A stretch of DNA of 64,000 bases from Candidatus Woesearchaeota archaeon (GTDB taxonomy: Archaea; Nanobdellota; Nanobdellia; Woesearchaeales; UBA525): contig JAPPOH010000008.1 of the NCBI GenBank assembly GCA_028818155.1, positions 10,376 through 74,375 of the forward strand, written 5' to 3'. Both the position numbers and the translations under genes were made by a program. Below the pieces are notes generated by a model that saw nothing but the letters and a program-made list of their open reading frames with translations, did not search any database and was not told the DNA's origin. Of this stretch, positions 13,974 through 44,865 are shown one piece after another. Position 1 is the stretch's first letter; the number at the start of each line of letters is the position of its first letter.

Positions 13974-15671
13974 ATGCATAGAACACACACGTGTGGTGAA
14001 TTACGCAAGGAGCACGCTGGAGAAGAAGTAACACTCTCCGGCTGGGTCCACGTGATCAGAGAGCATGGCAGCAAGCAGTTTGTTGACCTTCGTGATAGGT
14101 ATGGTGTGACGCAAGTTGTTCTCGAAGAAAAGGCAGATATTCGTCGAGAGACTGTGGTAAAAGTAACTGGGAAAGTTGTCGAGAAGCCAAAAGCGAATGA
14201 AAAATTAGCGACTGGCGAGATCGAAGTGCAAGCATCCTCTTGCAAGATTCTCGGACCGGCCGACCCGATCCCCATGGAGCCGGAAGCAGAGAATACAGAA
14301 GAGACACGACTCAAATACCGATACTTAGACTTGCGACGGCCGGACATGCAGGCAAAACTCCAATTCCGAGATGATTGCGCGTCCAGTGTGCGGAAACACA
14401 TGCACGCACACGGCTTTACCGAAGTGGAAACACCAATTCTCATGAAATCCACGCCTGAAGGCGCGAGAGATTATATCGTTCCTTCTCGTCTGCACAAAGG
14501 AAAGTTTTACGCCCTACCACAGAGCCCGCAGATCTACAAGCAGATTCTGATGGTTGCTGGCATGGACAAATACTTCCAAATCGTCAAATGTTTTCGTGAT
14601 GAAGATTTGCGTGCTGATAGGCAGCCAGAGTTCACCCAAGTGGACGTGGAGATGAGCTTTGTCGAGCAAGATGATGTGATCGCGCTTGGTGATGAATTAC
14701 TGAAGAATGTGGTGAAGGATGTGCTCGGCAAAGATGTCAAAACGCCATTCCCACGATTGTCATATGCTGAAGCGATGGACAAGTACGGGATTGATAAGCC
14801 GGACGCGAGGTTTGAGCTATTCCTGCATACGCTGACTGAGCTTGTGAAGGATTCCGAGTTCAAGGTGTTCAGTGAAGCGCCCTGCGTTCGTTGCTTAGTT
14901 GCTCCCGCGCTTTCACGAAAGCAGATTGACAAATATACGGAATTGGCGAAAACCTACAAGGCGAAAGGCCTCGCATACTTACAGGTCACGAAAGACGGCG
15001 TTGACAGTCCGATCAAGAAGTTCTTGTCTGATGAAGTTGTGGATAAAATCGTCAAAGAGACTGGCGCGAAGCCAGACAGCACGATTTTGTTCGTTGCAGA
15101 TAAAGAAAAAGTTGCAAATGACGCGCTCGCACACATTCGAAATGCGTTGGGTAAGCAGTTTGAATTATACGATCCTGAAGAATTAAATTTTCTTTGGGTG
15201 TTGGACTTTCCGTTATTCGAATGGAACGAAGATACTAAAGACTGGACGCCCATGCATCACATGTTTACCATGCCACACGAAGAGCATCTCCAATACTTGG
15301 AGTCTGATCCTGGCAAGGTCTTAGCGCAAGCGCACGATATTGTGCTCAATGGAACAGAAATCGGTGGTGGTAGCATCAGAGTGCACCATAAGGACGTGCA
15401 AGAACGTGTCATGAAGGCGATGAACATTTCTGAAGAGGATGCAAAGAAAAAATTCGGCTTCATGTTGGAGGCATTCCAGTACGGTGCGCCACCACACGGT
15501 GGCTTCGCTCTTGGTTTCGATCGAATGGTTGCGTTATTCCAAGGTGAGACTGATATTCGCGAGTATATCGCGTTCCCGAAGAACAAAGCAGCGCAGTCGT
15601 TGATGGACGACGCGCCTTCTGATGTCGAGCAAGAACAGCTGGATGAACTTCATTTGACTGTGAAGAAGTAA
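13974..15671 (+). CDS. aspS: aspartyl-tRNA synthetase, bacterial type with insertion domain (565 aa)
   Basis: FYALPQSPQIYKQILMVAGMDKYFQIVKCFRDEDLRADRQPEFTQVDVEMSF is nearly identical to the bacterial AspRS motif-2 region. The 565-aa length requires the bacterial insertion domain, since the archaeal type is ~430 aa. Confidence 0.9.
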   Translation: MHRTHTCGELRKEHAGEEVTLSGWVHVIREHGSKQFVDLRDRYGVTQVVLEEKADIRRETVVKVTGKVVEKPKANEKLATGEIEVQASSCKILGPADPIPMEPEAENTEETRLKYRYLDLRRPDMQAKLQFRDDCASSVRKHMHAHGFTEVETPILMKSTPEGARDYIVPSRLHKGKFYALPQSPQIYKQILMVAGMDKYFQIVKCFRDEDLRADRQPEFTQVDVEMSFVEQDDVIALGDELLKNVVKDVLGKDVKTPFPRLSYAEAMDKYGIDKPDARFELFLHTLTELVKDSEFKVFSEAPCVRCLVAPALSRKQIDKYTELAKTYKAKGLAYLQVTKDGVDSPIKKFLSDEVVDKIVKETGAKPDSTILFVADKEKVANDALAHIRNALGKQFELYDPEELNFLWVLDFPLFEWNEDTKDWTPMHHMFTMPHEEHLQYLESDPGKVLAQAHDIVLNGTEIGGGSIRVHHKDVQERVMKAMNISEEDAKKKFGFMLEAFQYGAPPHGGFALGFDRMVALFQGETDIREYIAFPKNKAAQSLMDDAPSDVEQEQLDELHLTVKK

Positions 15672-23048: not shown

Positions 23049-24344
23049 ATGACTATGACAATACAAGACGCAATCGAGCAAGGAACGGGAGACGCACAAC
23101 TCAGAGGCTGGATCTGGCGAGAGCGTGGCAGTAATAAGATGAAGTTCCTCGTCCTTAGAGATAGCTCGAACATCATCCAGTGCGTCTGTAAACGAGATGA
23201 TTTCTCTGATGAACAGTGGGATGCGATCGACAAACTCCAAGTGGAAGCTGCAGTGGAGTTAGAAGGAACACTCAAGAAAGACGACCGCGCACCAACTGGC
23301 GTTGAACTCACGGTAAAGAAACTCACGATCGTCGGAGCATCAGACACATTTCCGATCACAAAGGACCAAAGTACGGAATTCCTTGCAGATAACAGACACT
23401 TATGGTTGCGAAGTAGAAAAATGACCGCGATCCTAAAAATCAGAAGCACTGTCTTCGGCGCAATCCACGACTATTTCAGGAGCAACGGTTTCTACGAATA
23501 CCAAAGTCCGATCTTCCAGAGTGTCCAATGCGAAGGAGGCTCAACCCTATTCAACGTCCCCTACTTCGGACAAGAAGGTGTGTTCCTCGCACAATCATGG
23601 CAACTCTACGCGGAACCCGCAATCTTCTCGTTAGAAAAGATTTACACGATGGCACCCTCGTTCAGAGCAGAAAAGAGTAAAACATCGAGACACCTAACAG
23701 AATACTGGCACGCAGAGATGGAGATTGCGTGGGCAAACTTCGACGATGTTATTGATGTGGGGGAAGGAGTCTTGAAGCACATCACAAAAACGGTTCTTGA
23801 AAGAAACAAGCTCGACTTGGAAGTCTTAGAACGGGACATCAGCAAGCTAGAACCGGTCACAAAGAAACAATTCCCGAGGATGACGTACGACGACGCACTC
23901 AAAATACTGAAAGACAAATGCGACATGGATGTCGAGTGGGGCAAGGACCTGAGAACAGTCGAGGAAGACAAACTTTCAGAACTCTACGACACGCCAATCA
24001 TCGTCACACATTACCCGAAGAAGGTCAAGGCGTTCTACATGAAAGAAGCGCCAGACAACAAAGAAGTTGTCCATGGCGTTGATTTCATCGCGCCAGAAGG
24101 CTACGGGGAAATTATCGGCGGCTCAGAAAGAGAATCAGATTTAGAATCCATCAAAGAACGCCTTAAAGAGATGGGTGAAGATGTCAAAGAGTACGAATTC
24201 TACTTAGACACGAGAAAGTATGGCTCTGTCCCGCATGGTGGCTTTGGCATGGGTACAGAACGAGTCATCGCATGGATCTGTGGCGTAGAAAACATCAAAG
24301 ACACAATTCCTTTCCCGAGAACGATGCTGCGTTGGACGCCTTAG
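23049..24344 (+). CDS. asnS: asparaginyl-tRNA synthetase (431 aa)
   Basis: FRAEKSKTSRHLTEYWHAEME and YLDTRKYGSVPHGGFGMGTERV match the AsnRS class IIb motifs 2/3. Confidence 0.9.
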   Translation: MTMTIQDAIEQGTGDAQLRGWIWRERGSNKMKFLVLRDSSNIIQCVCKRDDFSDEQWDAIDKLQVEAAVELEGTLKKDDRAPTGVELTVKKLTIVGASDTFPITKDQSTEFLADNRHLWLRSRKMTAILKIRSTVFGAIHDYFRSNGFYEYQSPIFQSVQCEGGSTLFNVPYFGQEGVFLAQSWQLYAEPAIFSLEKIYTMAPSFRAEKSKTSRHLTEYWHAEMEIAWANFDDVIDVGEGVLKHITKTVLERNKLDLEVLERDISKLEPVTKKQFPRMTYDDALKILKDKCDMDVEWGKDLRTVEEDKLSELYDTPIIVTHYPKKVKAFYMKEAPDNKEVVHGVDFIAPEGYGEIIGGSERESDLESIKERLKEMGEDVKEYEFYLDTRKYGSVPHGGFGMGTERVIAWICGVENIKDTIPFPRTMLRWTP

Positions 24345-25537: not shown

Positions 25538-28500
25538 TTGGGTGTTTCGGTGGTACACAAGAGGATAACACTCGCGCTAGTCCTAGTGCTACTCCTGCCC
25601 TTTTTATACGCAGCAACCTCAACCACTATCACAACACCAACGAACAACACATTTCTCACAGGAAACACAGACATCAACGCCACGTTTAACGGCACGACAA
25701 ACATCACTATTCTCTACAATGATACAACACTGAACACATCAGTAAACGAATCAGGATCCTATTCCTTCACGTGGCCAACAAACAACGGCTCATTCCCTGA
25801 CGGGGTGTACAACCTCACTATCATTGTCGTGAACGAGACAAACCAATCGGATAACGACACAGCGTATGTCAGTAACCTCACAATTGACAACACCCCACCA
25901 ACAGTCACAACACTCACCGTCAACGACACAACACCGCTGAGCAACGATACAACGGTAAATTTCAGAGTCAATGTATCTGATACGAACAACGTCTCACTTG
26001 TACAACTCTCAAGCGGCGCAATCAACGCGAACATGACACGTATCGCAGGCGATGTCTTCAACGGCATGTACGAACTGAACACATCACTCGCAACGTTCGC
26101 CTGCGTGAACGAATCAGTCTGTACGCTCAGCGTCCTTGCTGATGATCTCGTCTCGAATAGGAACGACTCAGTCAACACAACCCAGTTCCCAGTCTTCACA
26201 GACAGTATCCCGCCACGGATCCTCTTCAACGGGACAAACGTCACAACAGCAGCAGCAGGAGACAATATCACGATCGCAGCACAATGGCAAGAAGTAGCAT
26301 TCATCAGCAACACCAGCTACACAGCCACGTTCGACAGATACAACGGCGCGGCATTCGCCTCAACACACCCATACCTCCAAGTATGGTCAAACAGCCTTCT
26401 AGAAACGAACTACACGAACGTCACGTACAACGTGAACGGTTCCGATGAAGGACAAACACTCACCTTTCGAGTAACACTAGAGGATACGAGCACATTCACG
26501 AACACAACTGAAAACCTCACCGTAACAATCAGCAATAGCTCCCCCACAGCAACGCTCATCTCACCATTCAACACCTCAACCATTGCGGACACAACAGGTA
26601 TTGTGCTCGAATTCTTCGACCAAGGAAGCGGCATCGATCTCACAACATTCACGATCAATATCACAAACGATGCCGTGAACACCTCAATAAACTATACGTC
26701 AAACAGCTCACTCTTCAGTTGCACAGCAAACACAACAACAATCACCGACAACCAAACGTGCACCGTTTCACTATCGCCATTCAGCGGCAATATAACACTC
26801 AACACACACGTCGAAGACCTTGTAGGGAACGAAGTGAACACAACACTCGCATACTTTATCGTGCAAGCACCCGACATCGTGAATATTTCCGCAAACAATC
26901 AATCGCTTGCAGTCACAACACCAGATGCGAGCATCAGCGCGTCAATCACAAACACGTCAAGAGAAATCACGCTCAACTGGAGTGTGGATGTGAACACAGC
27001 GGTGAACCAAACAACGATCGCTTTCGTGAACGTGACAGACCCGCAAGCAATAGTAAGAACAACGATACCTGCAGGCGTTCTCTATAACATTACCGCCGGA
27101 AAGAATTACCTTACTATTAACACAACACTGAACAACTCTCCAATCACAGAAACGGTTCAAATTAACTTGACCGCAAACGTCCCGCTCAACATCACATCGA
27201 TTGCAGCACAATACACAAAGGATATGGTGGTGAGCTTTAACGTCTCAGAGAACGGTATCGATATCACAAACGCGACGCGACAAGTCGACACAACGCTTGA
27301 ACTGCTCGTGAACGTGACGAACACAACATATCAGGCTGAGTTCAACTACACAGAAGTGAACGGTACAGCGGTCAGATGGAACGCATCCAGCGACGCATTC
27401 AATGCAGTCGCCGCAACTGGAGCACGGCTCTCAGAGCTCGGCAACAGAACATTCACGAACGTGTCATTCGTTATCCAAAGCGCCGGCCAGACAGAGTTGT
27501 TCTTCGACGAACAGCAGTACAGGGTGCACGTTGAGCTCAACGTCACACTGACGAACCTTACGCCATACTACACGTCAGATGACAACATATACCTCTTAGA
27601 GGCGTGTAGCGCAGCACCAACAACACCAATCAATGATTCAGACGCATGCTACCTGAACGGTACGAATACAACAATACTATATCTTCCGGCATTCGACAGT
27701 GGCGATGAACTATTCTTCGGCTCACCGAACGGCATTAACACAACACTCATTACCAATACGACAATCAATCAAAGCGTTATCCCACTCCACATCAGTGTCG
27801 CAACTATACTTCCAAACACAACATTCTGTACGTACAACGTGAGCTCTTACAACGTAACATCCGGAAACTCCACACAAAACGCAACAGCAACGCTTGGACC
27901 TGACGTGTTCACAATCAATGGGTTCCAATGGTCATACCAGCAAAATCTCACAGGATACGAAGACGGGTTATACAACTTCAGTCTCACGTGTGCAGAACAA
28001 CTTGGCAATACAGACACAGTGACAGCAACACTGAACATCACAGATACAACACCACCAACTATTTCACAAGTCACATCATCAAGTGTCGGACAAGACAGCG
28101 CAACCATTTCCGGTATCGCTGACGAAGTCGTCACCTTTACGTTGAAATACAGCACAGACGAGGACGATCTAAGCCTTTCAGAGGCAGGCACAACAGGCAC
28201 AGCAGAGAGTATCGACCTCGAGGATCTAAGTGCGGGTACAACATATTACTTTAACCTCACTGCATGCGACATAAACGGACGCTGTGGCACATCAGCAACA
28301 CTATCATTCACTACTGGAACACCATCTGTTAGTTCAGGAGGTGGTGGCGGTGGTGGTGGCGGAGGAGGAGGCGAAAAAGAGGTACTGGAAGGCACTATTG
28401 AAGAAACAGAAACTCGACTCTGGAATGCTGTCGCTTCAGGTCCTATCGAATACGATCCAATTGGTGTAGCATTCACATTCCTGAGCGTACACTTCGACAA

Positions 28501-29275
28501 AACAGCAACACGCGTTTCATTCACGATCAATCAGTTCGTCGGAAAACCAACATCGGTTGATCCAGCACCGAACACGATCTACAAGTATCTTGAGATCGAA
28601 CACAAAAACACAGATGACACGTCAAAACACATGCTTGAGTTTCGTGTGCCGAAGTCATGGCTCTTGGAAGAGCATATTATTGATGATACCATCGCCTTTT
28701 ATCGCCTCGAAGAAGACTGGAAGCAGTACAAAATAGAGAAAATCGAGGAGACTGACATCGAGATGCAGTACCGTGTCAAACTCCCAGGGTTCAGCTTCTT
28801 TGCAATCGGAGGGGAAGCTGACAAACCGGCTGTGGTGGTGCAGCAGAATCAGACAACGCCACCTACAAACACAACACTGGAAGTGGAAGAACCAGCAGCG
28901 CCTGTAGAAGAAGCACCTACGCCCTTCGTGTCCGCACTTGACAGAGAGGTGAAGAAGGGCATCCCGCCACTTCTTACTATTATTGGCGTCCTTGTCATAG
29001 TCACAGCGCTCGTTCTTCTGGGCCTCCAGCAGTACAAACTTCACCAAAAGAGAAAGAGCGACAATGAAGTCAAGCTACAAGAGGAGATCCAGGAACAACA
29101 AGGAAGAATCACGAAACCGCTTGACAGGCCAGCAGATCATGATCCAATGGCGCAACTGCACGCATATATCGTGCACATGCGTCAGAAAGGATTCCCAGAT
29201 GAGCATATCGAGAAGCGGCTAAAGCATATAGGTTGGGATGAAGTCATCATAAGTCAGGAGATGCTTCGAGACTAA
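25538..29275 (+). CDS. giant N-glycosylation-sequon-rich surface protein with FN3-like and PGF-pre-PGF-like domains, a C-terminal TM helix and a cytoplasmic tail (1245 aa)
   Basis: TTG start and a signal peptide (ITLALVLVLLLPFLYAA). I counted about 80 N-x-S/T sequons by hand. Also present: a Gly12 linker, ..LEFRVPKSWLLEE..YRLEEDWKQY..VKLPGFSFFAIGG, and the TM helix IPPLLTIIGVLVIVTALVLLGL. Confidence 0.75.
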   Translation: MGVSVVHKRITLALVLVLLLPFLYAATSTTITTPTNNTFLTGNTDINATFNGTTNITILYNDTTLNTSVNESGSYSFTWPTNNGSFPDGVYNLTIIVVNETNQSDNDTAYVSNLTIDNTPPTVTTLTVNDTTPLSNDTTVNFRVNVSDTNNVSLVQLSSGAINANMTRIAGDVFNGMYELNTSLATFACVNESVCTLSVLADDLVSNRNDSVNTTQFPVFTDSIPPRILFNGTNVTTAAAGDNITIAAQWQEVAFISNTSYTATFDRYNGAAFASTHPYLQVWSNSLLETNYTNVTYNVNGSDEGQTLTFRVTLEDTSTFTNTTENLTVTISNSSPTATLISPFNTSTIADTTGIVLEFFDQGSGIDLTTFTINITNDAVNTSINYTSNSSLFSCTANTTTITDNQTCTVSLSPFSGNITLNTHVEDLVGNEVNTTLAYFIVQAPDIVNISANNQSLAVTTPDASISASITNTSREITLNWSVDVNTAVNQTTIAFVNVTDPQAIVRTTIPAGVLYNITAGKNYLTINTTLNNSPITETVQINLTANVPLNITSIAAQYTKDMVVSFNVSENGIDITNATRQVDTTLELLVNVTNTTYQAEFNYTEVNGTAVRWNASSDAFNAVAATGARLSELGNRTFTNVSFVIQSAGQTELFFDEQQYRVHVELNVTLTNLTPYYTSDDNIYLLEACSAAPTTPINDSDACYLNGTNTTILYLPAFDSGDELFFGSPNGINTTLITNTTINQSVIPLHISVATILPNTTFCTYNVSSYNVTSGNSTQNATATLGPDVFTINGFQWSYQQNLTGYEDGLYNFSLTCAEQLGNTDTVTATLNITDTTPPTISQVTSSSVGQDSATISGIADEVVTFTLKYSTDEDDLSLSEAGTTGTAESIDLEDLSAGTTYYFNLTACDINGRCGTSATLSFTTGTPSVSSGGGGGGGGGGGGEKEVLEGTIEETETRLWNAVASGPIEYDPIGVAFTFLSVHFDKTATRVSFTINQFVGKPTSVDPAPNTIYKYLEIEHKNTDDTSKHMLEFRVPKSWLLEEHIIDDTIAFYRLEEDWKQYKIEKIEETDIEMQYRVKLPGFSFFAIGGEADKPAVVVQQNQTTPPTNTTLEVEEPAAPVEEAPTPFVSALDREVKKGIPPLLTIIGVLVIVTALVLLGLQQYKLHQKRKSDNEVKLQEEIQEQQGRITKPLDRPADHDPMAQLHAYIVHMRQKGFPDEHIEKRLKHIGWDEVIISQEMLRD

Positions 29276-30409: not shown

Positions 30410-30539
30410 GGTTGCTGTGGGCTCTCGACGTGCCTGTCCGGCGTACATATATATGCATACCACATGGGTGACGTACTGTGTACTCTGTATGCACATATGA
30501 TTATAGTATCCGTTCTCCGACTCGTTTGTGGTGGGGACT

Positions 30540-31442
30540 ATGAGAAGAAAAATTGTACAACACGGACCAAATACATTGACAATATCAATTCCAGCAGACT
30601 GGGTTCGTGAGCACGGAATGCAGAAAGGAGATGAAGTGAACGTTGAGCGTGTCAACCAAGGACTTCTTCTTACCACAGATAAAGGCGTCCATCTCCAAAA
30701 GAAAACGATCAATATCAAGGGAATCAAGCATGTTACCGCTGAGGCATTCGCAGCATTGTATAAGCGAGGCTATGACGAAATCGTCATCCAATATAGCACT
30801 CCTGAGGAGCGAGATGAAATCCACGCGATTCTCAGCAGAGGATACATGGGCTTCGAGATCATCCAAGAATCACCAAACGAAATGTACATCAGAAACGTTA
30901 CAGAGCCTTCAAAGAAGGAGTTCAAAACGCTCTTTCGGAGAATTTTCTACTTCTTACTCGCTATTTCAGAGGATAGTGTTGTTGCTATCAAAGAACATGA
31001 TGGGTATCAACGACTTATTCAGATGAATGACAACATTAAACGACTCACAGAGTTTTGTCGTCGTATGATCGCGAAGCATGGACAAAAGTCATATTCGAGC
31101 GATACGGCGATCTACTATATTCTTGAGCACCTTGAAAAAATCGCCATGACGTACACAGAGATCAATGAGCATTTGTCTCGTCGGAAGAAAAAAACTTCAG
31201 AGAAATACCATGAATTGTACATGGATGTCGATAAACTTTTGCGTGTGTATCAAGAATTGTTCTTCCAATTCACACTTGACAAGTCTGACGCGTTCGTTAA
31301 AATGCACAATGAAGCACAGAAAGGATTGCAAAAACATATGGAGAATGCAGAAAAGGACGACCTTGAGTTGTTACATCTTTTCGAAAAGACATCGAGACAG
31401 ATTTGTAGCCTCAACAACCCCACACTAGTCTTGCATTTGTAA
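30540..31442 (+). CDS. AbrB/SpoVT-PhoU fusion regulator (archaeal PhoU-type), paralog 1 (300 aa)
   Basis: MRRKIVQHGPNTLTISIPADWVREHGMQKGDEV swapped-hairpin domain followed by a helical PhoU-like region. Paralogous to 49472-50362. Confidence 0.7.
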   Translation: MRRKIVQHGPNTLTISIPADWVREHGMQKGDEVNVERVNQGLLLTTDKGVHLQKKTINIKGIKHVTAEAFAALYKRGYDEIVIQYSTPEERDEIHAILSRGYMGFEIIQESPNEMYIRNVTEPSKKEFKTLFRRIFYFLLAISEDSVVAIKEHDGYQRLIQMNDNIKRLTEFCRRMIAKHGQKSYSSDTAIYYILEHLEKIAMTYTEINEHLSRRKKKTSEKYHELYMDVDKLLRVYQELFFQFTLDKSDAFVKMHNEAQKGLQKHMENAEKDDLELLHLFEKTSRQICSLNNPTLVLHL

Positions 31443-34183: not shown

Positions 34184-34645
34184 ATGGGATTTGGCAGTAT
34201 CGCAACACAAATGGTTCTTTTTATCGCTATGGTAACCATAGCAGCAAGCCTTGTCATGCACATGAGAGTCTTCACAGGCCAAGCAACAGCATCCATTGCA
34301 GTGCAGAAAGACAGACTCGTTGAAGAACTCAAAACAGACGTCACAATCACATCGCTTTCATTCTCAAACCTCACAGATCCACACACAGCAACAATCTATG
34401 TCAAGAACACAGGAAAAATCAAACTGAAACTCAATGCAACAGACTTATACATTGATGGAAGCAGATATACAACGACAGAACGCAATATCAGCATTGAAAA
34501 CGACACAGAAGTGAACAACCCCTTAATATGGGACCCAAGTGAAGTTGTTAAAATCGAAGGATTCCGTAACCTCTCAGGAGGACTTCACACTGCACGAGTT
34601 GTGACTGACAATGGCGTGAGCGACGAAGACACATTCTCAACATAA
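34184..34645 (+). CDS. ArlF/ArlG (FlaF/FlaG) family protein (153 aa)
   Basis: N-terminal TM helix QMVLFIAMVTIAASLV followed by a beta-rich domain (TIYVKNTGKIKLKLNATDLYIDGSRY). Confidence 0.65.
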   Translation: MGFGSIATQMVLFIAMVTIAASLVMHMRVFTGQATASIAVQKDRLVEELKTDVTITSLSFSNLTDPHTATIYVKNTGKIKLKLNATDLYIDGSRYTTTERNISIENDTEVNNPLIWDPSEVVKIEGFRNLSGGLHTARVVTDNGVSDEDTFST

Positions 34646-35328
34646 TGTTCCGCATCGACCTCAAAGGAGATGAACTGCACAAAAAACTAGGGGGTGGAAT
34701 CCCTCGGAACGCGTTCGTTCTCATCGAAGCAGAGAACGCAATCGGAAAATCCGCGCTTGCACAACGATTCATTTATGGCGCGCTCACGAATAAACACACA
34801 GCAACATACATCAGCTCTGAAATGACACTCGTTGGTTTCATGAACCAAATGAAATCACTCCATTACGACATCAAATCAAAAATCCTCAACAAAGATCTCC
34901 TGTATATTTCACTCTTCCCCGCATTTAGCGACATCACATTCCGCGCACATCTCATCGAAACGCTCTTGGGAGCACAGCAACTCTTTGAGAAAGATATTAT
35001 CGTTTTCGACACCTTGAGCGAGCTGCTCGTCAAGCAGGAAATGTCGTTGCAAGAGTGCTTTGACTTCGCAAGCCACTTGAAGAAAGTTGCAGGAAAAGAC
35101 AAAGCAATCGTTTTCTGCGTCGATCCCAGCAGACTCAACGAAGCGCTTCTTTCGATGCTCAAATCAGTTTCTGACGTGTACATCAGTATGGGTTCAAAAG
35201 AGATCTACGGCAAAAGCGTCAAAGTCATGCGTGTACAGCGGTTTAACGGCGCAATGAATGATGTTGAGGAAGAAATCGCTTACAAAGTAAAAGCAGGCGT
35301 CGGTATCGTGCCAGAGCTCGCAGGTTAG
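34645..35328 (+). CDS. arlH: ArlH/FlaH RecA/KaiC-like ATPase (227 aa)
   Basis: LGGGIPRNAFVLIEAENAIGKSALAQRF and IIVFDTLS. Sits directly upstream of arlI. Confidence 0.8.
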   Translation: MFRIDLKGDELHKKLGGGIPRNAFVLIEAENAIGKSALAQRFIYGALTNKHTATYISSEMTLVGFMNQMKSLHYDIKSKILNKDLLYISLFPAFSDITFRAHLIETLLGAQQLFEKDIIVFDTLSELLVKQEMSLQECFDFASHLKKVAGKDKAIVFCVDPSRLNEALLSMLKSVSDVYISMGSKEIYGKSVKVMRVQRFNGAMNDVEEEIAYKVKAGVGIVPELAG

Positions 35329-35329
35329 C

Positions 35330-36967
35330 ATGGAAAAAACGGTTCGAGTAGCGGAAAAGACGAAAAATCTGAATGAAGCAACGCAGAAATTTCCACATCT
35401 TGCGAAATACATAGAGGAGCAGCAGAAGAAAAATATTCATCCAGAATTCTACGAAGAACTCAATAGAGACATGAGCTCAATGGAAACACCAAACCTCATC
35501 TATCCCGTAGGAGACCCTATTTTTATCCACATCTACAGAGAGAAAGGAAAAGAGACACACTACAACGTTATCGAACCAGAGATGACAGAAGAAGATGAAG
35601 TACTCTACAACAAAATCATGGATCTTATGATCGAAGTCGTGGACCAGGAGAAAGTACCTGATGACGTTTCACAGATCGAGGAAATTCTCAAGTCACTCTT
35701 CGATAAAGTCACACAAATCGGTGGCGGTGGCTTAGGGTTTCTCTCAGTTGACAAGAAAGTCAAGGTGACAAAAGTCCAGTACGATATGCTCAAGTACTAC
35801 TTGATTCGGGACCGCGTTGGGTACGGGAAACTTGAGGCACTTCTTTACGATCCAAATCTTGAAGATATTCACTGCACAGGTGTGGGCGCTATCACAACGA
35901 TCCACAAGGTCTTTGATCTCGTCCACACCTCTATTATTTTTGATGATGACAAGTCATTGAACAAGTACATTATCGACGTCACAGAGAGGGTTGAGCGCCC
36001 AGTAAGTGACGCACGTCCTGTTGTGGACGCAATCATGCCTGATGGTTCGCGTTCGAACGTCATTTACGGACGAGAAGTGAGTTTGGAAGGTTCAAGCTTC
36101 ACGCTCCGTAAGTTCTCGTCAACCCCTGTGTCCATTACCCAGATCATCAACTGGGGGACCATAAGTCTTGATCTCGCAGCATACCTGTGGCTTGCAATGG
36201 AGAATGGCATGAACATGTTTGTCTGTGGAGAAACTGCATCGGGTAAGACAACAACACTCAACGGCCTCTGCGTCTTCATCAAACCTGACGCGAAAATCTA
36301 TACTGTTGAGAACACACCGGAAGTGACGATGCCTCATAAAGTGTGGCAACACCTCGTGACGAGAGAAGCAGGAAAGGATTCTGACGTCACATATCTTGAT
36401 TTGCTGATCGCCGCACTGCGTAGCCGTCCAAACTATATCATCGTTGGCGAGATTCGTGGTGAAGAAGGAGCGATAGCATTTCAGGCAATGCAAACAGGAC
36501 ACCCAGTCCTCTCGACATTCCACGCAGGAAACGTGACTGCAATGATCCAGCGTGTGACTGGCGACCCAATTAACATTCCAATCACATCTGTGGACAACCT
36601 TAACCTCTGTCTGATTCAAATGGCAGTCTTCCGTGACAATAAGCCATTGCGACGTGTTCTTTCCTTAACAGAGTTAGAACGATACTACGAACCAGCGAAC
36701 AAGATGATCACACGAGAAGTGTTCACATGGGATGGTGTGCACGATGAGCATGTCTTTCGAGGCATGTTCAACAGCTATATTCTCGAGCAGAAAATAGCAA
36801 AATCACTCGGGTATGATGATCCACGCCGCATCTACTCTGAGATGGAATTGCGTGCAAAAATCCTCAAACGCATGATCGAAGAGGAGATTTTCGATTACTT
36901 TGCCGTCTGGGATGTCATCCGTAATTATTTTCACGGGGGGGCGGAAACGTTACCGTTTGAGTTATGA
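35330..36967 (+). CDS. arlI: ArlI/FlaI archaellum motor ATPase (545 aa)
   Basis: Walker A GETASGKTTTLNGL, IYTVENTPEV, IIVGEIRGEEG, LSTFHAGN. Confidence 0.9.
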   Translation: MEKTVRVAEKTKNLNEATQKFPHLAKYIEEQQKKNIHPEFYEELNRDMSSMETPNLIYPVGDPIFIHIYREKGKETHYNVIEPEMTEEDEVLYNKIMDLMIEVVDQEKVPDDVSQIEEILKSLFDKVTQIGGGGLGFLSVDKKVKVTKVQYDMLKYYLIRDRVGYGKLEALLYDPNLEDIHCTGVGAITTIHKVFDLVHTSIIFDDDKSLNKYIIDVTERVERPVSDARPVVDAIMPDGSRSNVIYGREVSLEGSSFTLRKFSSTPVSITQIINWGTISLDLAAYLWLAMENGMNMFVCGETASGKTTTLNGLCVFIKPDAKIYTVENTPEVTMPHKVWQHLVTREAGKDSDVTYLDLLIAALRSRPNYIIVGEIRGEEGAIAFQAMQTGHPVLSTFHAGNVTAMIQRVTGDPINIPITSVDNLNLCLIQMAVFRDNKPLRRVLSLTELERYYEPANKMITREVFTWDGVHDEHVFRGMFNSYILEQKIAKSLGYDDPRRIYSEMELRAKILKRMIEEEIFDYFAVWDVIRNYFHGGAETLPFEL

Positions 36968-38631
36968 ACCTCAAAAAAATAAGTCTTGTTGCAGGATATA
37001 AAAGCACAAAAGATATGTTTTTGCGGTTCATGGCACCGATGATTGGTGGTGCGATCATCGCGAGTGGCGCGATGTTTTTCTTCAGCAAGTTTATCGCATT
37101 GGCGCTCCTCATAGCAGGGTTTCTCCTCGCATTTCTCTATCCGTATGGAAAATTCTCAACGAAGAAGAGATCAATCGACGCATCATTACATCTTTTCATT
37201 ACGTATTCCGGCACGATCAGCACAATGAAGATCTCTCGGCAGCAATTATTCAAGAAAATTGCAGAGAAAGGGATGTTTGGCGAAGTCAGCAATGTTGCAG
37301 AAAAAATTCTGTATCTCTCGAGGGGATGGAAGCTCAGATTTTCAGAATCGTGTCGACGTATGGGTGCACGTGTTCCTTCACAGATTCTTGCTGACTTTTT
37401 CGACCGTTTTGCTGTCATGATGGACTTCGGACAGGACCTTGAGGTTTTCCTTGCAGAGGAGCAGATTGCGGTGTTGAACGATTACGGCACTGAATACCGA
37501 AAATCACTCGAGGTTATCAGATTCTTACAAGACCTGTTCATTTCACTTATCGTCGCACTCTCTTTTATTCTTGCAATCGCACTCTTGGCACCACTTGTTG
37601 TTGATATTTCCGTCGTGTTAATTGTGCAAGGTGCACTCCTTGCGTTCTTTGTGGTTGACGGTATCATCTTGTTCATGATTATTGGGTTTGTTCCACCTGA
37701 CAAGATCTTTCACGGTCTCAAAGAGAGCAATCCAGCACAAGAATGGATTAAACGATGGTTTATTATTGCTGTTATCATTGGAGCTATCGCAATTCCAGTA
37801 CTTGTCTGGCAAACAGAGTGGCCGTTCATGGTTTGTATTGTTGTTGGTATTCTTCCTCTTCTATTACCTGGCTATCTTGCTTCTCGAGAAGAAAAGAGCG
37901 TCCTTCGAAGAGATCGACTGTTTCCGGTGTATGCACGAACGCTCGGTGCTGCAGTCGAAGTGCGAAATGGAGGTGTTATTTCCGCACTCAAATCGACACA
38001 GATCCACGATTTTGGACTACTGAACAAAATGTCGATTGATCTTTATAGTAGATTGCGCCTTGGGTCTGACAAGTACAAATCATGGTATCGTTTCGCTGTT
38101 GATTCAGGAAGCCATTTGATCTACCACTTCAGCAGAATCTTCTCAGAATCTATCTACATGGGAGGAAATGCACACAAGATTGGCGATATTATCAGTGGAA
38201 ACGTGATGAAACTCCTCTCGCTTCGAACATTACGATTGCAACTTGCAGGGGGGATGCGTGGTGCATTCTACGGTTCACTTATCGGCCTTGGCTCTGTGAT
38301 GTATGTGACAGTTGAAATTTCACAGCAACTCGTTGTGTTATTTAGCCAGCCATTAGAAGGAACAGATGCATTTTCTTTCGTGAATTCGATTGTTCCGCAG
38401 GCAACAGACAGTGCTGATTTCGCTCGTATCGTGATGTTTATCGGTATTCTTCTTGTTGCACATGCAGGCGCGTCAGCGGCTATTCTCAAGTTTATTGACG
38501 GCGGCTCGCTTTACGCCGCGCTTATCGACTTTGTTCTGATGGTTGGCGTCTGTGCTGCAATGTCTCTCGTCATTCCAGGTATGACTGAAGGATTGTTGCC
38601 TGACTTCTCTGGCGTCTGGCAAGCAACGTAG
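36964..38631 (+). CDS. arlJ: ArlJ/FlaJ platform membrane protein (555 aa)
   Basis: ATGA overlap with arlI. Polytopic, with two cytoplasmic helical domains. Confidence 0.85.
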   Translation: MNLKKISLVAGYKSTKDMFLRFMAPMIGGAIIASGAMFFFSKFIALALLIAGFLLAFLYPYGKFSTKKRSIDASLHLFITYSGTISTMKISRQQLFKKIAEKGMFGEVSNVAEKILYLSRGWKLRFSESCRRMGARVPSQILADFFDRFAVMMDFGQDLEVFLAEEQIAVLNDYGTEYRKSLEVIRFLQDLFISLIVALSFILAIALLAPLVVDISVVLIVQGALLAFFVVDGIILFMIIGFVPPDKIFHGLKESNPAQEWIKRWFIIAVIIGAIAIPVLVWQTEWPFMVCIVVGILPLLLPGYLASREEKSVLRRDRLFPVYARTLGAAVEVRNGGVISALKSTQIHDFGLLNKMSIDLYSRLRLGSDKYKSWYRFAVDSGSHLIYHFSRIFSESIYMGGNAHKIGDIISGNVMKLLSLRTLRLQLAGGMRGAFYGSLIGLGSVMYVTVEISQQLVVLFSQPLEGTDAFSFVNSIVPQATDSADFARIVMFIGILLVAHAGASAAILKFIDGGSLYAALIDFVLMVGVCAAMSLVIPGMTEGLLPDFSGVWQAT

Positions 38632-38756
38632 TGGTTACTATACATATCATATTCTCTATGTGTATGGCACTGTTGCAAAAATTGAAGTAGCGTTTTCGTT
38701 AATGTACCAAATGCCTATACTGGCATCCATAAAACAGTGATCGAGGTGACTACATA

Positions 38757-39344
38757 ATGAAGCGGGCACGAAAAGGGGAGATGGGTATGGGTACACTAAT
38801 TATTTTTATCGCGATGATTTTAGTCGCGGCAGTTGCTGCATCCGTGCTTATTAGCACGACAGGCGCACTGCAAAACAAAGCTTTGGCAACAGGTAGAGCA
38901 ACAACCTCGGAGGTTGGGACGTCTATCCATGTCATGGAAGTCTACGCAGAAGATGGTTCGAATCAACAAGTGGATTACTTGTACGAATCTGTGAAATTAA
39001 GTGCAGGATCAGGTGCAATCAGGTTTTCTGACACACTCATGAGCTTGAACTTAAACGATCAAACTGCAGACTACGAATATAACTCGAGCGTCGATTGCAC
39101 GAATACGAGTACAACAACAGCAGGTGGAGACTTTGGTGTCGAGTATTTGATTAACGGATCAAACAACCAAGCAGGATATCTCGTAAAGGGAGATGTTGCA
39201 CGGGTTTGTATCCAATCGCCAAGAACAATTACAGAAGGCGAAGAAATCAAACTCAGCTTGATACCAATGGTTGGACACGCAGTCGTGACAGAGACATCAA
39301 CACCAGATTTGATGATCGACACACGCATTACGGTCTTCCCATAG
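38757..39344 (+). CDS. arlB: archaellin 1 (195 aa)
   Basis: [51 protein letters not shown] at 38744-38750. Confidence 0.9.
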
Positions 39345-39375
39345 ACAAGTGACAACATGGGTGAGGTGGCATAAC

Positions 39376-39963
39376 ATGAAAACAACAAGAAAAGGTGAAA
39401 TGGGTATGGGTACCCTAATCATCTTTATTGCGATGATCCTCGTAGCTGCAGTCGCAGCAGCTGTACTTATCAGCACTACGGGCGCATTGCAAAATAAAGC
39501 ATTGGCAACAGGTAAAGCAACGACAACGGAAGTGGGAACATCACTCTCTGCACTTGAAGTGTATGTGGAGAACGGCTCTGATCAGTCAGTAGATTATTTC
39601 TACGAGACAATCAAGCTTGGTGCAGGCTCTGACTCAATTAGATTCAGTGACACACTTTTAACGTTGAACCTCGACAATACAACGGCAGACTATGAGTACA
39701 GCTCAGGAGTTGACTGTACGAGTACAGGTTCCATGAGCGCAGGCGGCGACTTTGGTATTCAATACCAAATTGTTGGTAATAACAACCGATCAGGCTACTT
39801 AACGAAGGGCGATGTAGTGAAGCTATGCTTCCAAGCACCACGATCTGTGAACGAAGGTGAAGAATTCAAAGTTAACCTCGTTCCAATGGTTGGCAGCCCA
39901 CTCGTTGTTGAAGCAGCAACGCCTGACTTGATGGTGGATACCAGAGTTACAGTTTTCCCATAA
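39376..39963 (+). CDS. arlB: archaellin 2 (195 aa)
   Basis: [43 protein letters not shown] lies upstream. The track start 39349 adds a non-conserved extension. Confidence 0.9.
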
Positions 39964-39976
39964 GATTGTAGCATTC

Positions 39977-39984
39977 TTTTTTTT
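39977..39984 (+). terminator. T8 tract after archaellin 2 (possible partial terminator)
   Basis: An oligo-T run 14 nt after the stop. Archaeal RNAP terminates at oligo-T. Confidence 0.35.
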
Positions 39985-40014
39985 CCTACTTTTTAGGTAA
40001 CGGAGGAACTGACA

Positions 40015-40596
40015 ATGACAAGAAAGGGAGAAATGGGTATGGGTACCTTGATCATCTTTATAGCTATGATCTTGGTGGCTGCCGTTGCGGCTGCAGTATT
40101 AATCAGCACTACGGGTGCCCTACAGAATAAAGCATTAGCGACAGGTAAAGCAACAACGACAGAAGTGGGAACATCACTGACAGCAATCGAACTCTATGTA
40201 GAAGACGGCTCTGATCAGTCGGTAGATTATTTCTACGAGACAATCAAGCTTGGATCAGGCTCTGAAGCACTACGGTTCACAGACACGCTGGTGTCCTTGA
40301 ACTTAAACGATCAGACCGCTGACTACGAGTACAACGCAAGCGTTGACTGTACAAACACTAGCCTTATTATTGCAGGTGAAGAGTTTGGTATTCAGTACCA
40401 AATCAACGGTACAAACAACCAAGATGGCTACTTGACGAAGGGTGACGTAGTGAAACTCTGCTACAGAGCACCACGAGCAGTAACTGAGGGCGAAGAGTTC
40501 AAAGCAAGTCTTGTACCTATGACTGGTAGTCCGCTCGTCGTCGAGGCAGCAACGCCTGACTTAATGGTGGATACGAGAATTACAGTCTTCCCATAA
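40015..40596 (+). CDS. arlB: archaellin 3 (193 aa)
   Basis: [36 protein letters not shown] lies upstream. Confidence 0.9.
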   Translation: MTRKGEMGMGTLIIFIAMILVAAVAAAVLISTTGALQNKALATGKATTTEVGTSLTAIELYVEDGSDQSVDYFYETIKLGSGSEALRFTDTLVSLNLNDQTADYEYNASVDCTNTSLIIAGEEFGIQYQINGTNNQDGYLTKGDVVKLCYRAPRAVTEGEEFKASLVPMTGSPLVVEAATPDLMVDTRITVFP

Positions 40597-40601: not shown

Positions 40602-40618
40602 TTTTTTTTTTTTTTTTT
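40602..40618 (+). terminator. T17 tract terminating the archaellin transcript
   Basis: 17 consecutive T residues beginning 6 nt after the arlB3 stop. The last 2 nt overlap the stop codon of the convergent KaiC-like gene. Confidence 0.6.
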
Positions 40619-41351
40619 AGATATCCGTGAACATTGTCTGATCAGGATACACAACAACGCCATTCTCTGTGATCTTAAATAACCTGATTTCTTTATCATG
40701 GTTAGTTCCGCGCATCTTTTTGATTGCAATGCCAGGAATGAACTTTGCACCCTGCCTGACGCGGTATAATGCGATAACCCCGTCAGTAATGAACTCTTCA
40801 ATCCCGTATGTTGAGAGCTCTAATGATCCCTCTTTCGTCTCCGTAAGTAATAATGCAGTCACGCCAAGTGAGGAGAGCGTGTTACAGAGCATCGCAAGTG
40901 CTGTTCTCCGTTCTTCCTCGGTTTCAAGAAGCATTAGGAAAAGATTGAGTGAGTCGAGCACGAGCCGCTTCACGTTCTTTTCTTTCACAATCTCCTCAAT
41001 TTCTTTAATTAAGTGATGCACATTCGCGTTCACGTTCTTCATTGACTGTGTGATAACGGCAAGCGGTCCACCAATGAGGAGAAAGTTCCCTGTTTTTTCA
41101 AGTTCAGCGATATCAAGGTGCAGCTCGTGCATGTCTGCATAGAGCTTTTCTTTGCTTTCCTCAAGTGTCACATACATACTTGTCTCGTCATTCCGAGCTC
41201 CTTCACAAATGAATTGCACCGCAAGGGTTGTTTTTCCAATGCCTGCTCCTCCTGAAAGTAGGATATTCCTTCCATGTAGAAAACCGCCGTGCAGCATCTT
41301 GTCAAGGCCTTTACATCCTGTTGTGGCACGGTCTATACTCCCCGAAGACAT
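40617..41351 (-). CDS. single-domain KaiC/RecA-like ATPase (244 aa)
   Basis: TTGCKGLDKMLHGGFLHGRNILLSGGAGIGKTTLAVQF, Walker B RLVLDSLN, and ..KKMRGTNHDKEIRLFKITENGV... I use ATG 41351. The track extension to 41645 overlaps the rhomboid gene. Confidence 0.8.
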   Translation of the reverse strand: MSSGSIDRATTGCKGLDKMLHGGFLHGRNILLSGGAGIGKTTLAVQFICEGARNDETSMYVTLEESKEKLYADMHELHLDIAELEKTGNFLLIGGPLAVITQSMKNVNANVHHLIKEIEEIVKEKNVKRLVLDSLNLFLMLLETEEERRTALAMLCNTLSSLGVTALLLTETKEGSLELSTYGIEEFITDGVIALYRVRQGAKFIPGIAIKKMRGTNHDKEIRLFKITENGVVVYPDQTMFTDI

Positions 41352-41935
41352 CGATATTTCCTCCGCTGTAACACAGGCTGCAGTTTTCGTAGTGCAAGAA
41401 ATAAGAAACTTCCAACAAAGAGTCCAGATAGATGGAACAGACTCTGTATGAATGATGCAATGAATGTGTTCGTAACGTCGCCACGAAGTAACGAGAGCAT
41501 CGTAGGAAAGATAATGATAGCAATAATAGCAAAGAGTAACGTGTTCGTCTTCAAGTACTTCCGCGGAAGATTGTACGCAATGACGCCAAAACCACCATAC
41601 ACTGCTGAGGAAGCCCCGAGAATGGTCGCGTGTGTTACAAACCATATAGGAAGTGCTCCGACTATTCCAGTGAGAAGATAGACAACAACAAACATGAGTG
41701 GCAGCATGCCAATTTCATAGACAAGCACACCAAGAAGCATAAACCCTACAATATTCTCAAGCAGGTGTGAGAGATCAATGTGAGCAAACTGATAGGTGAA
41801 AAAACGCCACACCTCCCCTTGCTGTACATTCTCGTACACTAGGGAAAAACGATCAGCACTTGCAGGAATGTGAAACACACCGACGTACAGAACAACCATA
41901 CACGTCACGAAAGTTACAATTTGCCACTTCATCAT
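41333..41935 (-). CDS. rhomboid-family intramembrane serine protease (200 aa)
   Basis: WRFFTYQFAHIDLSHLLEN, GASSAVYG (catalytic Ser) and FHLSGLFVG (catalytic His), with 6 TM helices. Confidence 0.8.
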   Translation of the reverse strand: MMKWQIVTFVTCMVVLYVGVFHIPASADRFSLVYENVQQGEVWRFFTYQFAHIDLSHLLENIVGFMLLGVLVYEIGMLPLMFVVVYLLTGIVGALPIWFVTHATILGASSAVYGGFGVIAYNLPRKYLKTNTLLFAIIAIIIFPTMLSLLRGDVTNTFIASFIQSLFHLSGLFVGSFLFLALRKLQPVLQRRKYRCLRGV

Positions 41936-42152: not shown

Positions 42153-42209
42153 CCAGTCTTGACACAATACACGGAAAGAAGATTAAAGGGTATTTGGCGT
42201 AGTTCGTCG

Positions 42210-43862: not shown

Positions 43863-44356
43863 CAACACTTCAAGAAGCGCTACAAAAGAAGCACAAAATT
43901 TTGATGCTTGAGCTTCCCACAGAACACTATTTTCACCACAACCTTGCTACGTTGAGGGAACTGACAGCGCCAGGTATTTTTATCAGTACACAGCGTCCAG
44001 CAGCAAACGTCACAACACACTTCAAGAAAGAAAACATACATGACGTGCACATCATAGATACAACTGCAGACCAAGAACATGAGAGTTGTTCGTGTGTCAC
44101 CACAGATGTCGATGCGATTGTGGGTGCCATCAATGCACAATTAAATGATGAAACCAAATTTATTTTTATCGATTCACTATCAACAATAACACTATACAAG
44201 CCACTCTCAGAAATACTACGATTATCCGAGTTTCTTATCACAACAGCAAACACATCAAACGCCACAGTCCTTTTTGGTATTGCAAAAGATCTCAAGCATA
44301 AGAAATTCATCGAAGATATTGCGCTCCAAGTAGACAGCATAGTGAATGTCCAATGA
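43859..44356 (+). CDS. P-loop-less KaiC-derived (DUF835-like) protein, paralog 1 (165 aa)
   Basis: ILMLELPTEHYF replaces the Walker A motif. It retains FIFIDSLSTITLY followed by ..NATVLFGIAKD... ATGA overlap with the KaiC stop. Confidence 0.55.
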   Translation: MTTLQEALQKKHKILMLELPTEHYFHHNLATLRELTAPGIFISTQRPAANVTTHFKKENIHDVHIIDTTADQEHESCSCVTTDVDAIVGAINAQLNDETKFIFIDSLSTITLYKPLSEILRLSEFLITTANTSNATVLFGIAKDLKHKKFIEDIALQVDSIVNVQ

Positions 44357-44865
44357 TGCAACTCCCTATACGTGAGAATACTATACTCTTTCTTGAGACT
44401 CGTCCTGCGAAAGCAAATAACGCAACGCTTGAGATCGTGAAAGAAATGGCATCACATGCCCATGTCGTTGTTCTCTCTGTGAATAGGCCATACGAAAACC
44501 TCATGCAGACATATCAAGAGAACGGAGTAAATACGGAAAACGTGTTCGTTATAGATTGCATTTCAGCAAGCCAAGGCGCAGCAGCAACTGGAAAGAACGT
44601 GGTTTTTATCGAAGACGCAAATGAGCTAACGGAGATCGCAATAGCAATTGATGAGCATATGGAATCGTTCGTTTGTATTGATTCTATCACAACAATGCTC
44701 CTCTACAACAAACCTGACGTCTTCACAAGGTTTTTGCATAGTGTCTTGACAAAAATGCGCATCAATCACATAGGAGGTGTCTTCACGTCCTTGGTTGATG
44801 AGGGGAGCAAGGAAATACGTGCAGAAATCGCACAACTGTGCGATGAGGTGTTCACGTATGAATAA
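44353..44865 (+). CDS. P-loop-less KaiC-derived (DUF835-like) protein, paralog 2 (170 aa)
   Basis: ILFLETRPAKANNATLEIV replaces the Walker A motif. It retains FVCIDSITTMLLY followed by ..GGVFTSLVDEG... ATGA overlap with the preceding gene. Confidence 0.55.
   Translation: MMQLPIRENTILFLETRPAKANNATLEIVKEMASHAHVVVLSVNRPYENLMQTYQENGVNTENVFVIDCISASQGAAATGKNVVFIEDANELTEIAIAIDEHMESFVCIDSITTMLLYNKPDVFTRFLHSVLTKMRINHIGGVFTSLVDEGSKEIRAEIAQLCDEVFTYE

Follow-up and report, generated by a model that had tools for sequence, protein, structure and literature searches.

Introduction

The cytoplasmic motor complex of the archaellum is formed by FlaX, FlaH and FlaI (PMC5019145). The coiled-coil proteins FlaC/D/E (ArlC/D/E) and FlaX (ArlX), which are cytoplasmic or membrane-associated and are encoded together with FlaH, FlaI and FlaJ, scaffold this motor (PMC4858521, PMC5019145), and KaiC-like ATPases and coiled-coil proteins are associated with archaeal type IV filament loci (PMC4858521). 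The present work deals with a small, predicted helical domain found in a stretch of 64,000 nucleotides from a Candidatus Woesearchaeota archaeon (assembly GCA_028818155.1, contig JAPPOH010000008.1, positions 10,376 to 74,375; G+C content 46%). Judged by the homologues of its proteins, the DNA belongs to Woesearchaeota or Nanoarchaeota, which are DPANN archaea. The whole of this 64-kb stretch is referred to as the window, and the domain occurs there in the C-terminal tails of two large surface proteins of 1245 and 841 residues and at the N-terminus of a soluble coiled-coil protein of 169 residues. To our knowledge, most DPANN archaea are uncultivated and the connection between their envelope and their cytoplasm is unknown.

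Several described domains resemble this module in size and fold class. Domains of the UBA-like families (PF00627, UBA_3 PF09288, UBA_2, UBA_DHX29) likewise have about 40 residues and three helices and are appended to proteins as protein-binding modules on flexible linkers. The N-terminal domain of Pex14 (PF04695) is a cytosolic three-helix bundle carried by a membrane protein which docks short peptide motifs, and RecX_HTH1 (PF21982) and Raf1_HTH (PF18579) are three-helix units of similar length with Gly-containing turns.

A first-pass annotation of the window described a recurrent "helix-Gly-helix-Gly" segment of about 36 residues and proposed that it could tie surface proteins, a pilus-like machine and possibly KaiC into one interaction network. 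Analysis of independently collected protein families indicates that a conserved module of about 40 residues with three predicted helices, located on the cytoplasmic side and so far unnamed, is very probably real. It appears to be an unnamed variant of the common UBA-like, HTH-like (helix-turn-helix) class of three-helix domains, and from the sequences seen it is probably restricted to DPANN archaea, being found solely, or at any rate in much larger numbers, in Woesearchaeota and their DPANN relatives.

Carrier proteins and position of the module

The peptides listed in the first-pass annotation, including a fourth one from a KaiC protein, translate exactly as written from the + strand, and the proteins that carry them are as it described. 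The features of the three carriers, with the core segments first delineated, are as follows.

25538-29275, + strand: open reading frame (ORF) of 1245 residues with a signal peptide, an ectodomain rich in N-x-S/T, a membrane helix and a tail of 82 residues
28484-28810, + strand: PGF-pre-PGF domain, residues 983-1091 of the 1245-residue protein (TIGR04213, E 3.6e-17)
28961-29026, + strand: membrane helix, residues 1142-1163 of the 1245-residue protein, followed by a basic, charged linker
29141-29272, + strand: module copy 1, residues 1202-1245 of the 1245-residue protein (core 29156-29263)
45485-48010, + strand: ORF of 841 residues with a signal peptide, an ectodomain, a membrane helix and a tail that opens with a Lys/Glu/Pro-rich linker
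47591-47776, + strand: membrane helix (residues 703-725) and low-complexity K/E/P-rich linker (residues 726-764) of the 841-residue protein
47777-47899, + strand: module copy 2, residues 765-805 of the 841-residue protein (core 47783-47890)
10191-10700, + strand: ORF of 169 residues with an N-terminal head, a Pro/Gln linker and a coiled coil, lacking a membrane helix
10200-10316, + strand: N-terminal module copy 3, residues 4-42 of the 169-residue protein (core, residues 4-39)
10383-10697, + strand: conserved coiled-coil region, residues 65-169 of the 169-residue protein, which a Pro/Gln-rich linker connects to the module

The PGF-pre-PGF domain of the 1245-residue protein scores 62.8 bits against an NCBIfam cut-off of 28. 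As the membrane helix is followed by a basic, charged linker, the positive-inside rule would place the tail of this protein in the cytoplasm. A run of 12 Gly (28337-28372) separates its fn3-like region from the PGF-pre-PGF domain, and since Gly runs occur at the same place in the homologues L081 and L082 it represents a hinge that is flexible and conserved rather than an artefact of assembly. The ectodomain of the 841-residue protein gives a borderline match to the alpha-macroglobulin TED domain (PF07678, 22.6 bits, cut-off 22), and that of its family is alpha/alpha-toroid-like. The coiled coil of the 169-residue protein contains many residues that are invariant in the family alignment (e.g. 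AMEKVFSKVLP), and in Pfam it gives generic coiled-coil matches only. An ORF of 234 residues on the opposite strand (9986-10690, -) covers all of the 169-residue gene and exceeds its length; the gene on the + strand is the real one because it has 719 homologues, and gene calling by the longest ORF would miscall this locus.

The module is laid out as helix 1, a G/D/N cap, helix 2, an invariant Gly followed by an aromatic residue, and helix 3. Its core pattern, with column statistics taken from 94 independent modules of the 841-residue family, comprises a hydrophobic helix 1 with K/R, the G/D/N cap, I at +6, L at +10, G at +14 followed by the aromatic residue, [EQD]-[IV] at the start of helix 3 and a hydrophobic residue at +24. 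All three window copies fit this pattern in one register, the copy of the 1245-residue protein failing a strict regular expression by having W in place of F/Y/L and H at one core position. A regular expression of the five most conserved columns of the 841-residue family is expected to produce about one random match per window proteome, and pattern matching therefore lends no support to membership.

The families of the 169- and 841-residue proteins

The similarity among the three segments could not be settled within the window. Single-sequence phmmer comparisons inside the window were not significant; hidden Markov models (HMMs) built by leaving out one segment at a time recovered the omitted one at E 0.15, 2.9 and 0.0019 among 1176 six-frame ORFs. 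The search outlined in the first-pass annotation, with an HMM of all three segments, recovered nothing else in the window, the next match being an Lrp/AsnC regulator (E 0.05). Independent family alignments were thus needed, and it is these profiles that link the segments and extend the family to hundreds of members.

For the 169-residue protein 719 homologues could be detected; in genomes of GTDB species, 184 relatives were confirmed. The first 40 residues are strongly conserved in this family, with the consensus IPLxRIQEMKxQGLSNNQIIQTLQRDGYSSTQIFDALxQ. For the 841-residue protein an exhaustive HMMER search retrieved 139 homologues. When jackhmmer was seeded with the window segment alone, at least 71 of the 138 other family proteins were seen to carry the module downstream of their last membrane helix, 48 having one copy and 23 two in tandem (94 copies in all). 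The consensus of these modules is LIEDLIKIMKSLGKDDDEIRKRLKQEGFSEEEIDEALKEL and the most conserved columns are I, L (92/94), G (88/94), F/Y and I/V. Most of the shared columns proposed earlier (a basic residue at 9, I18, L22, G26, an aromatic at 27, E-[IV] and a hydrophobic residue at 36) are the most conserved ones in this alignment. Their G12 is not: the first-Gly column holds G in 41/94 copies and otherwise mostly D or N, so that the label "helix-Gly-helix-Gly" is strictly true for the second Gly only.

In close homologues of the 841-residue protein identity reaches 37% in the module, compared with 20% in the linker, 19% at the C-terminal end and 15% in the membrane helix. The module is, as judged from these alignments, the most conserved part of tails that are otherwise variable and charged. 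The median distance from the membrane helix to the module is 48.5 residues in this family. An HMM of the 94 modules from other members, which excludes the window sequence, matches the window copy with E 2.2e-10.

When the N-termini of the 169-residue family (n=117) were compared with the tail modules of the 841-residue family (n=94) by hhalign, neither alignment containing window sequences, they matched over 37 columns with a probability of 96.9% (P 1.7e-10, score 42.2) and in the register of the first-pass annotation. Reversed and 30 column-shuffled controls scored 4.8-15.0. An HMM made of 841-family modules only was searched against 6960 ORFs (785,070 residues) from 80 Woesearchaeota loci and retrieved almost solely N-termini of the 169-residue family (best E 2.7e-6); at E < 0.1 every match but one was such an N-terminus, and the exception, L018, is itself module-like. 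On the basis of the profile match, its controls and this retrieval, the copies of the two families belong to one sequence and structure family.

The module recurs in several predicted protein architectures. Besides the carriers described above, the loci fetched include a protein of 91 residues with a membrane helix followed by the module (L018) and another of 169 residues in which an N-terminal module precedes a membrane helix and a Cys-rich ectodomain (L075); the 841-family protein P0123 has a possible degenerate second copy. In distant members of the 841-residue family (P0147, P0155, P0159, P0164, P0165 and others) tandem modules lie about 15-20 residues apart, and the second copy lacks the Gly of the first loop (consensus ...VLxxLKxxxDxxxDVxxKLKxxGFSExxI). 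In L085 (3655-6564) and L086 the upstream neighbour gene (383 residues) also ends in a module.

The tail of the 1245-residue protein

The 1245-residue protein quite probably contributes a true copy, as the weakest member of the module family and a divergent subfamily whose second loop carries GW. Taken as a single sequence, the tail was matched by hhalign with 75.6% (P 2.4e-5) in the register first proposed. Homologues of this protein were hard to find: a word-indexed search with its last 300 residues produced 1341 candidates, none at E <=0.1, and a first metagenome scan with the same region yielded 217 pattern matches, none of which was confirmed. A homologue of 349 residues (L004:17856-18905) was then detected by blastp of the window proteins against the ORFs of the 169-family loci, and a metagenome homologue (L081:1-1758) in a second scan with a 2-sequence alignment. 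The L004 protein combines a PGF-pre-PGF domain with a membrane helix and a tail, and its gene adjoins UPF0147 and prefoldin genes, as in the window. The tails of the two homologues (DPLATLQHYVMKMRAKDMHPDEIRERLLAVGWDPIIVEQEMMR and DPMAELHSYISRMRAKNKGDNEIRDKLIAAGWDETIVDLELLR) share 44-51% identity with that of the window protein, the overall value being about 31%, and have D or N at the G12 column. The tail is optional in this family since a further relative, L082, stops right after the membrane helix.

With the homologues added, the score of this tail against the 841-family modules rose from 22.5 to 26.3 and 28.4, the 3-sequence profile reaching 91.5% (P 8.6e-7), and against the 169-residue family from 18.4 to 22.4 and 26.5 (82.8%). 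The maximum among 60 column shuffles was 11.8, as compared with 28.4. The combination of PGF-pre-PGF domain, membrane helix and tail is seen in a fourth protein (L085:2409-3557, TIGR04213 E 2e-9), whose end, KRFVEYQKNQGLTDNQIEDVLANVGFSSDDIKRVSG, matches the 169-family profile with 95.3% and the 841-family profile with 90%. TIGR04213 scores in L085, L004 and L081 are 37.6-41.2 bits (cut-off 28).

A single-sequence AlphaFold2 (AF2) model of the 1245-residue protein's tail (predicted local distance difference test, pLDDT, 69) has helix 1 at PMAQLHAYIVHMRQK and helix 2 at DEHIEKRLKHI, which exactly flank the two loop positions and lie in the same register as in the bundle of the 169-residue protein; helix 3 is short and was predicted with low confidence. 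A local HMMER alignment to the 841-family profile had placed this tail one helix out of register. The shifted alignment was rejected because no helix 1 would remain, the upstream sequence being Pro-rich, and because hhalign, the homologues and the AF2 model back the original register. The register of the first-pass annotation is in this way borne out by hhalign for the three copies.

Predicted fold and relation to known domains

The AF2 model of the 169-family N-terminus, computed from the family alignment, is a three-helix bundle (pLDDT 89.2) with helices at residues 5-13, 18-28 and 32-43. In every copy seen the module is on the predicted cytoplasmic side, either beside a membrane helix or opening a soluble coiled-coil protein. 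The earlier view of a small, discrete cytoplasmic domain agrees with this consistent placement, with the bundle model and with the island of conservation in the tails.

None of the window copies matches a Pfam family above threshold. When members were scanned one by one and near-matches counted at E < 1, the 169-residue family approached Raf1_HTH (43/46), DUF7626 (40/46), DUF1699 (22/46), UBA_3 (19/46), RecX_HTH3 and UBA, and the 841-residue family RecX_HTH1 (32/52), DUF7626 (20/52) and DUF494. DUF7626 (PF24625), the most frequent near-match, reaches a best E of 1.1e-7, only helices 1 and 2 being aligned (profile positions 9-32 of 55). Its threshold of 27 bits is reached by one relative (27.2); in the window the tail of the 1245-residue protein scores 19.5 and the N-terminus of the 169-residue protein about 13.4 bits, and the tail of the 841-residue protein gives no match. 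Since DUF7626 is itself a domain without known function, membership in it would explain nothing.

The UBA-like domains are among the nearest families. Their helix 1 ends in hydrophobic-x-x-Gly plus a hydrophobic residue (the "MGF/Y" loop), as in the module, their second loop has a Gly and helix 3 ends in a hydrophobic residue. The UBA_3 threshold (20.4) was passed by 2 of 10 N-termini of the 169-residue family that were tested (22.1 and 21.2) and the best UBA score was 21.3 (threshold 22.4); matches at E < 1 were found for 1-2/52 modules of the 841-residue family and for none of the window copies. Two traits, the invariant Gly-aromatic pair of the second loop and the acidic residues that open helix 3, are specific to the module family and set it apart, and no UBA structure appears among its Foldseek matches. 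We know of no ubiquitin-like partner for the module in these organisms.

The best natural match is the N-terminal domain of Pex14, with a Foldseek TM-score of 0.69 (query-normalised; root-mean-square deviation 3.0 Å) and a sequence E of 1.2e-3. As a cytosolic bundle borne by a membrane protein it may be a good functional analogue, although it belongs to a eukaryotic peroxisomal protein and neither the structural (Foldseek E 5.5) nor the sequence match is significant; no evidence of ligands of the WxxxF type was obtained here. RecX units occur in tandem, as do the modules of distant 841-family members, and RecX_HTH1 gives a best E of 9.8e-5 for modules of this family. The RecX and Raf1 scores are all below threshold, and the module has no RecA- or Rubisco-related context, being located instead in the tails of membrane proteins.

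Gene neighbourhoods

Two of the three carrier families are encoded with archaellum- or pilus-type machinery. The corresponding features of the window are the following.

34184-40596, + strand: archaellum operon, preceding the KaiC genes and the 841-residue gene, with Pfam Arch_flagellin, KaiC/ATPase and T2SSE matches
34645-35328, + strand: FlaH, KaiC/RecA superfamily
40617-41645, - strand: single-domain KaiC of 342 residues, KaiC/RecA superfamily
42159-43862, + strand: two-domain KaiC of 567 residues
43713-43820, + strand: segment of the C-terminal extension of the two-domain KaiC, not a module copy
43859-44356 and 44353-44865, + strand: short proteins with weak KaiC-related matches (DUF835-like, DUF7504-like), KaiC/RecA superfamily
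5251-12538, mixed strands: FlaI-type (type-IV-filament-like) cluster around the 169-residue gene

The archaellum operon, which is complete and of the standard type, encodes a minor component of 153 residues resembling Arch_flagellin, FlaH (227 residues), FlaI (545 residues), a FlaJ-like protein (555 residues) and three archaellins; it is followed by the KaiC paralogues and then by the 841-residue gene. The first-pass annotation had assigned this gene to a KaiC operon; in view of the window operon and its relatives, it is better described as an archaellum-operon gene. In 6 of the 7 informative contigs of relatives the gene is located inside an archaellum operon (P0123, P0124, P0128, P0136, P0126 and P0139), directly after flaJ in L090 and L093 and beside archaellin genes in L083, L088, L089 and L092. 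Being so consistently encoded there, the family is a candidate for a lineage-specific archaellum or stator component, and it looks like an archaellum-associated component that has not been described before. Five genes of the KaiC/RecA superfamily lie within 10 kb and were reported as lying between the archaellum operon and the 841-residue gene.

The C-terminal extension of the two-domain KaiC had been put forward as a fourth, weaker copy of the module. This assignment was rejected: hhalign gave 9.5% and 1.3% against the two family profiles, and the extension appears in no HMM match list nor near the top of a sliding-window scan. As an isolated peptide, the extension of about 50 residues (43713-43862) gives a weak match to the C-terminal winged-helix domain of MCM (E 0.0086).

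The FlaI-type cluster contains a polytopic membrane protein of 744 residues (-), a FlaI/TadA-like ATPase of 795 residues with a long N-terminal extension (-; NCBIfam FlaI E 2.4e-34, Pfam T2SSE), the 169-residue gene (+) and three polytopic proteins of 220, 200 and 188 residues (-). In 80 Woesearchaeota loci the 169-residue gene is accompanied by the three polytopic proteins in 73, by the 795-residue ATPase in 51 and by the 744-residue protein in 41. The three polytopic proteins of about 200 residues have no Pfam or NCBIfam match and no pilin-like N-terminus, and neither a pilin gene nor archaellins are recognisable in the cluster (5251-12538). As a coiled-coil protein encoded beside a FlaI-type ATPase, the 169-residue protein is a plausible functional analogue of FlaC/D/E and FlaX, from which it differs in belonging to a second FlaI-type cluster and not to the archaellum operon. 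An identification of its coiled coil as FlaC is not claimed: hhalign gave a weak 38.8% to a FlaC_arch protein and Pfam FlaC_arch is matched by 0/48 members.

Possible function and alternative explanations

A role as a cytoplasmic protein docking or oligomerisation domain is considered moderately probable. On this reading the segments represent a single small three-helix domain, some 40 residues long, that folds on its own. In the single-pass surface proteins it is attached through a flexible, charged linker at a median of about 50 residues after the membrane helix, with one or two modules in the archaellum-operon 841-residue family and one in the PGF-pre-PGF proteins, and in the soluble 169-residue protein it heads the coiled coil. 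A module of this UBA-like, Pex14-N-like kind might bring envelope proteins, at their cytoplasmic ends, and the coiled-coil protein into contact with a binding partner in the cytoplasm. In two of the three families this partner could plausibly be part of the motor platform of the archaellum or type IV filament (FlaI, FlaH or KaiC-like ATPases), or else another module. By analogy, the nearest families (UBA_3, UBA and Pex14), which are three-helix domains for protein interaction, may be counted in favour of docking, and the idea of an adaptor or network would rest on fold class, position and gene neighbourhood.

Several results weigh against a single domain family with a single role. HMMER profiles of the two families do not reach significance with the tail of the 1245-residue protein (E 4.8-9), and in a scan of 1410 windows of fifty residues covering all window proteins this tail ranked third, behind the other two copies, with a score of 22.3, an HTH segment of the Lrp/AsnC regulator scoring 20.9. 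Foldseek searches of the PDB returned 18 matches at E <=10 and none at E <=0.001, a comparison of low power for domains this small. The PDB sequences that best fit the module profile (31 bits, E 1.4e-6) belong to de novo designed three-helix miniproteins (8skx_A, 8vl3_A, 8vl4_A), natural proteins (the Pex14, RecX and CBL UBA domains) following at E 1e-3 or weaker. It follows from the designed matches that some of what the subfamilies have in common, namely L-x3-G-[FY]-S-x-E-E-I, represents a generic and idealised way of capping and connecting helices; this junction is essentially the ideal helix-loop-helix connection of protein designers, and the match serves as a warning on claims of homology for very small helical domains. 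That the three subfamilies descend from one ancestor is likely, though not proven. In addition, the 1245-residue family is not encoded near filament machinery and neither are the distant two-module relatives P0147 and P0168, so that a single shared motor partner cannot be general.

Convergence is kept as a real rival on account of the designed miniproteins, even though it is judged rather unlikely. In that case the subfamilies would be unrelated short helical hairpins or bundles which share a generic, energetically ideal helix C-cap (Gly), a hydrophobic staple (F, Y or W), an N-cap (S, T or D) and an acidic first turn and have no common function; the failure of HMMER to detect the tail of the 1245-residue protein, the insignificant pairwise and leave-one-out similarity within the window and the separate subfamily signatures (NNQII...FDAL, GKDDEEI and MR.K...GWD) are in line with it. 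Common ancestry is favoured by a match that extends over 37 columns, comprising helix 1 and both loops with identical spacing, by the high specificity of the 841-module HMM among the 6960 Woesearchaeota ORFs, by the same cytoplasmic placement beside a membrane helix or linker of every copy within one lineage and by the L085 tail, which bridges both profiles at 90-95%. A plain chance likeness of amphipathic, low-complexity charged helices, with no domain behind it, was the objection foreseen in the first-pass annotation, and the tails are indeed rich in K, E and D while the window-only statistics are weak. The module, however, is a conserved island between low-complexity linkers, composition-keeping shuffled and reversed controls score 5-15 as opposed to 42 and 28, and there are hundreds of conserved family members and a confident AF2 model, all of which effectively refutes this explanation and leaves it a negligible probability. 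Minimal three-helix DNA-binding HTH domains, which would make the carriers membrane-tethered or coiled-coil transcription regulators, are regarded as very improbable. Sub-threshold Pfam matches to Raf1_HTH (43/46), HTH_68, MerR_1, HTH_38 and the three-helix repeats of RecX, non-significant top Foldseek matches such as the CI repressor, Tn3 resolvase and a response-regulator HTH, and the automatic JGI name "DNA-binding transcriptional MerR regulator" given to some members of the 169-residue family point in this direction. Against it, the modules are acidic or neutral and not basic, with a mean net charge of -3.4 in the 841 type (n=94, minimum -19), -0.9 in the 169 type (n=117) and -1.3 in the 1245 type; those of surface proteins are tethered about 50 residues from the membrane and are often in tandem. 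Family thresholds are hardly reached, the window segments scoring 13-20 bits with cut-offs of 27 (HTH_68 19.5 with 27; Raf1_HTH at most 21.3 with 27.3), and a coiled coil beside a small helical head accounts for the MerR names.

If the module is indeed a docking domain, a more far-reaching form of this reading is a lineage-specific docking code, in which the tails of the surface proteins would bind, homotypically or through a shared partner, to the copy of the 169-residue protein and hence to platforms of the FlaI, FlaH or KaiC type. This is considered improbable. Were it true, adhesins and envelope proteins of DPANN archaea would be physically coupled to archaellum- and pilus-type machines, an inside-out link relevant to host attachment and sensing by episymbionts, and the 841-residue family would belong to the structural components of the Woesearchaeota archaellum, so far without having been recognised as such.

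Whichever function applies, hundreds of "hypothetical" Woesearchaeota proteins gain a domain with boundaries, a consensus and a predicted fold. The archaellum operon gains a candidate new protein family, whose members combine an ectodomain with a single membrane helix and one or two modules, and the conserved coiled-coil protein of the second FlaI-type cluster is added as a third conserved element. A small soluble module of this kind would also provide an experimental handle on the archaellum and envelope of DPANN archaea. If it were only a generic UBA-like spacer, the annotation would still be useful, though no surprise.

Other features of the window

Two proteins of about 305 residues, encoded at 30528-31442 (+) and 49427-50362 (+), have an N-terminal domain of the MazE/AbrB type (SpoVT-AbrB), and the roughly 250 residues that follow it in each have no family match. 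The window also contains two genes for class II tRNA synthetases of the Asp/Asn/Lys type, at 13974-15671 (+; 565 residues) and 23049-24344 (+; 431 residues), the shorter of which lacks the GAD insertion domain that gives the longer one the architecture of a bacterial-type AspRS.

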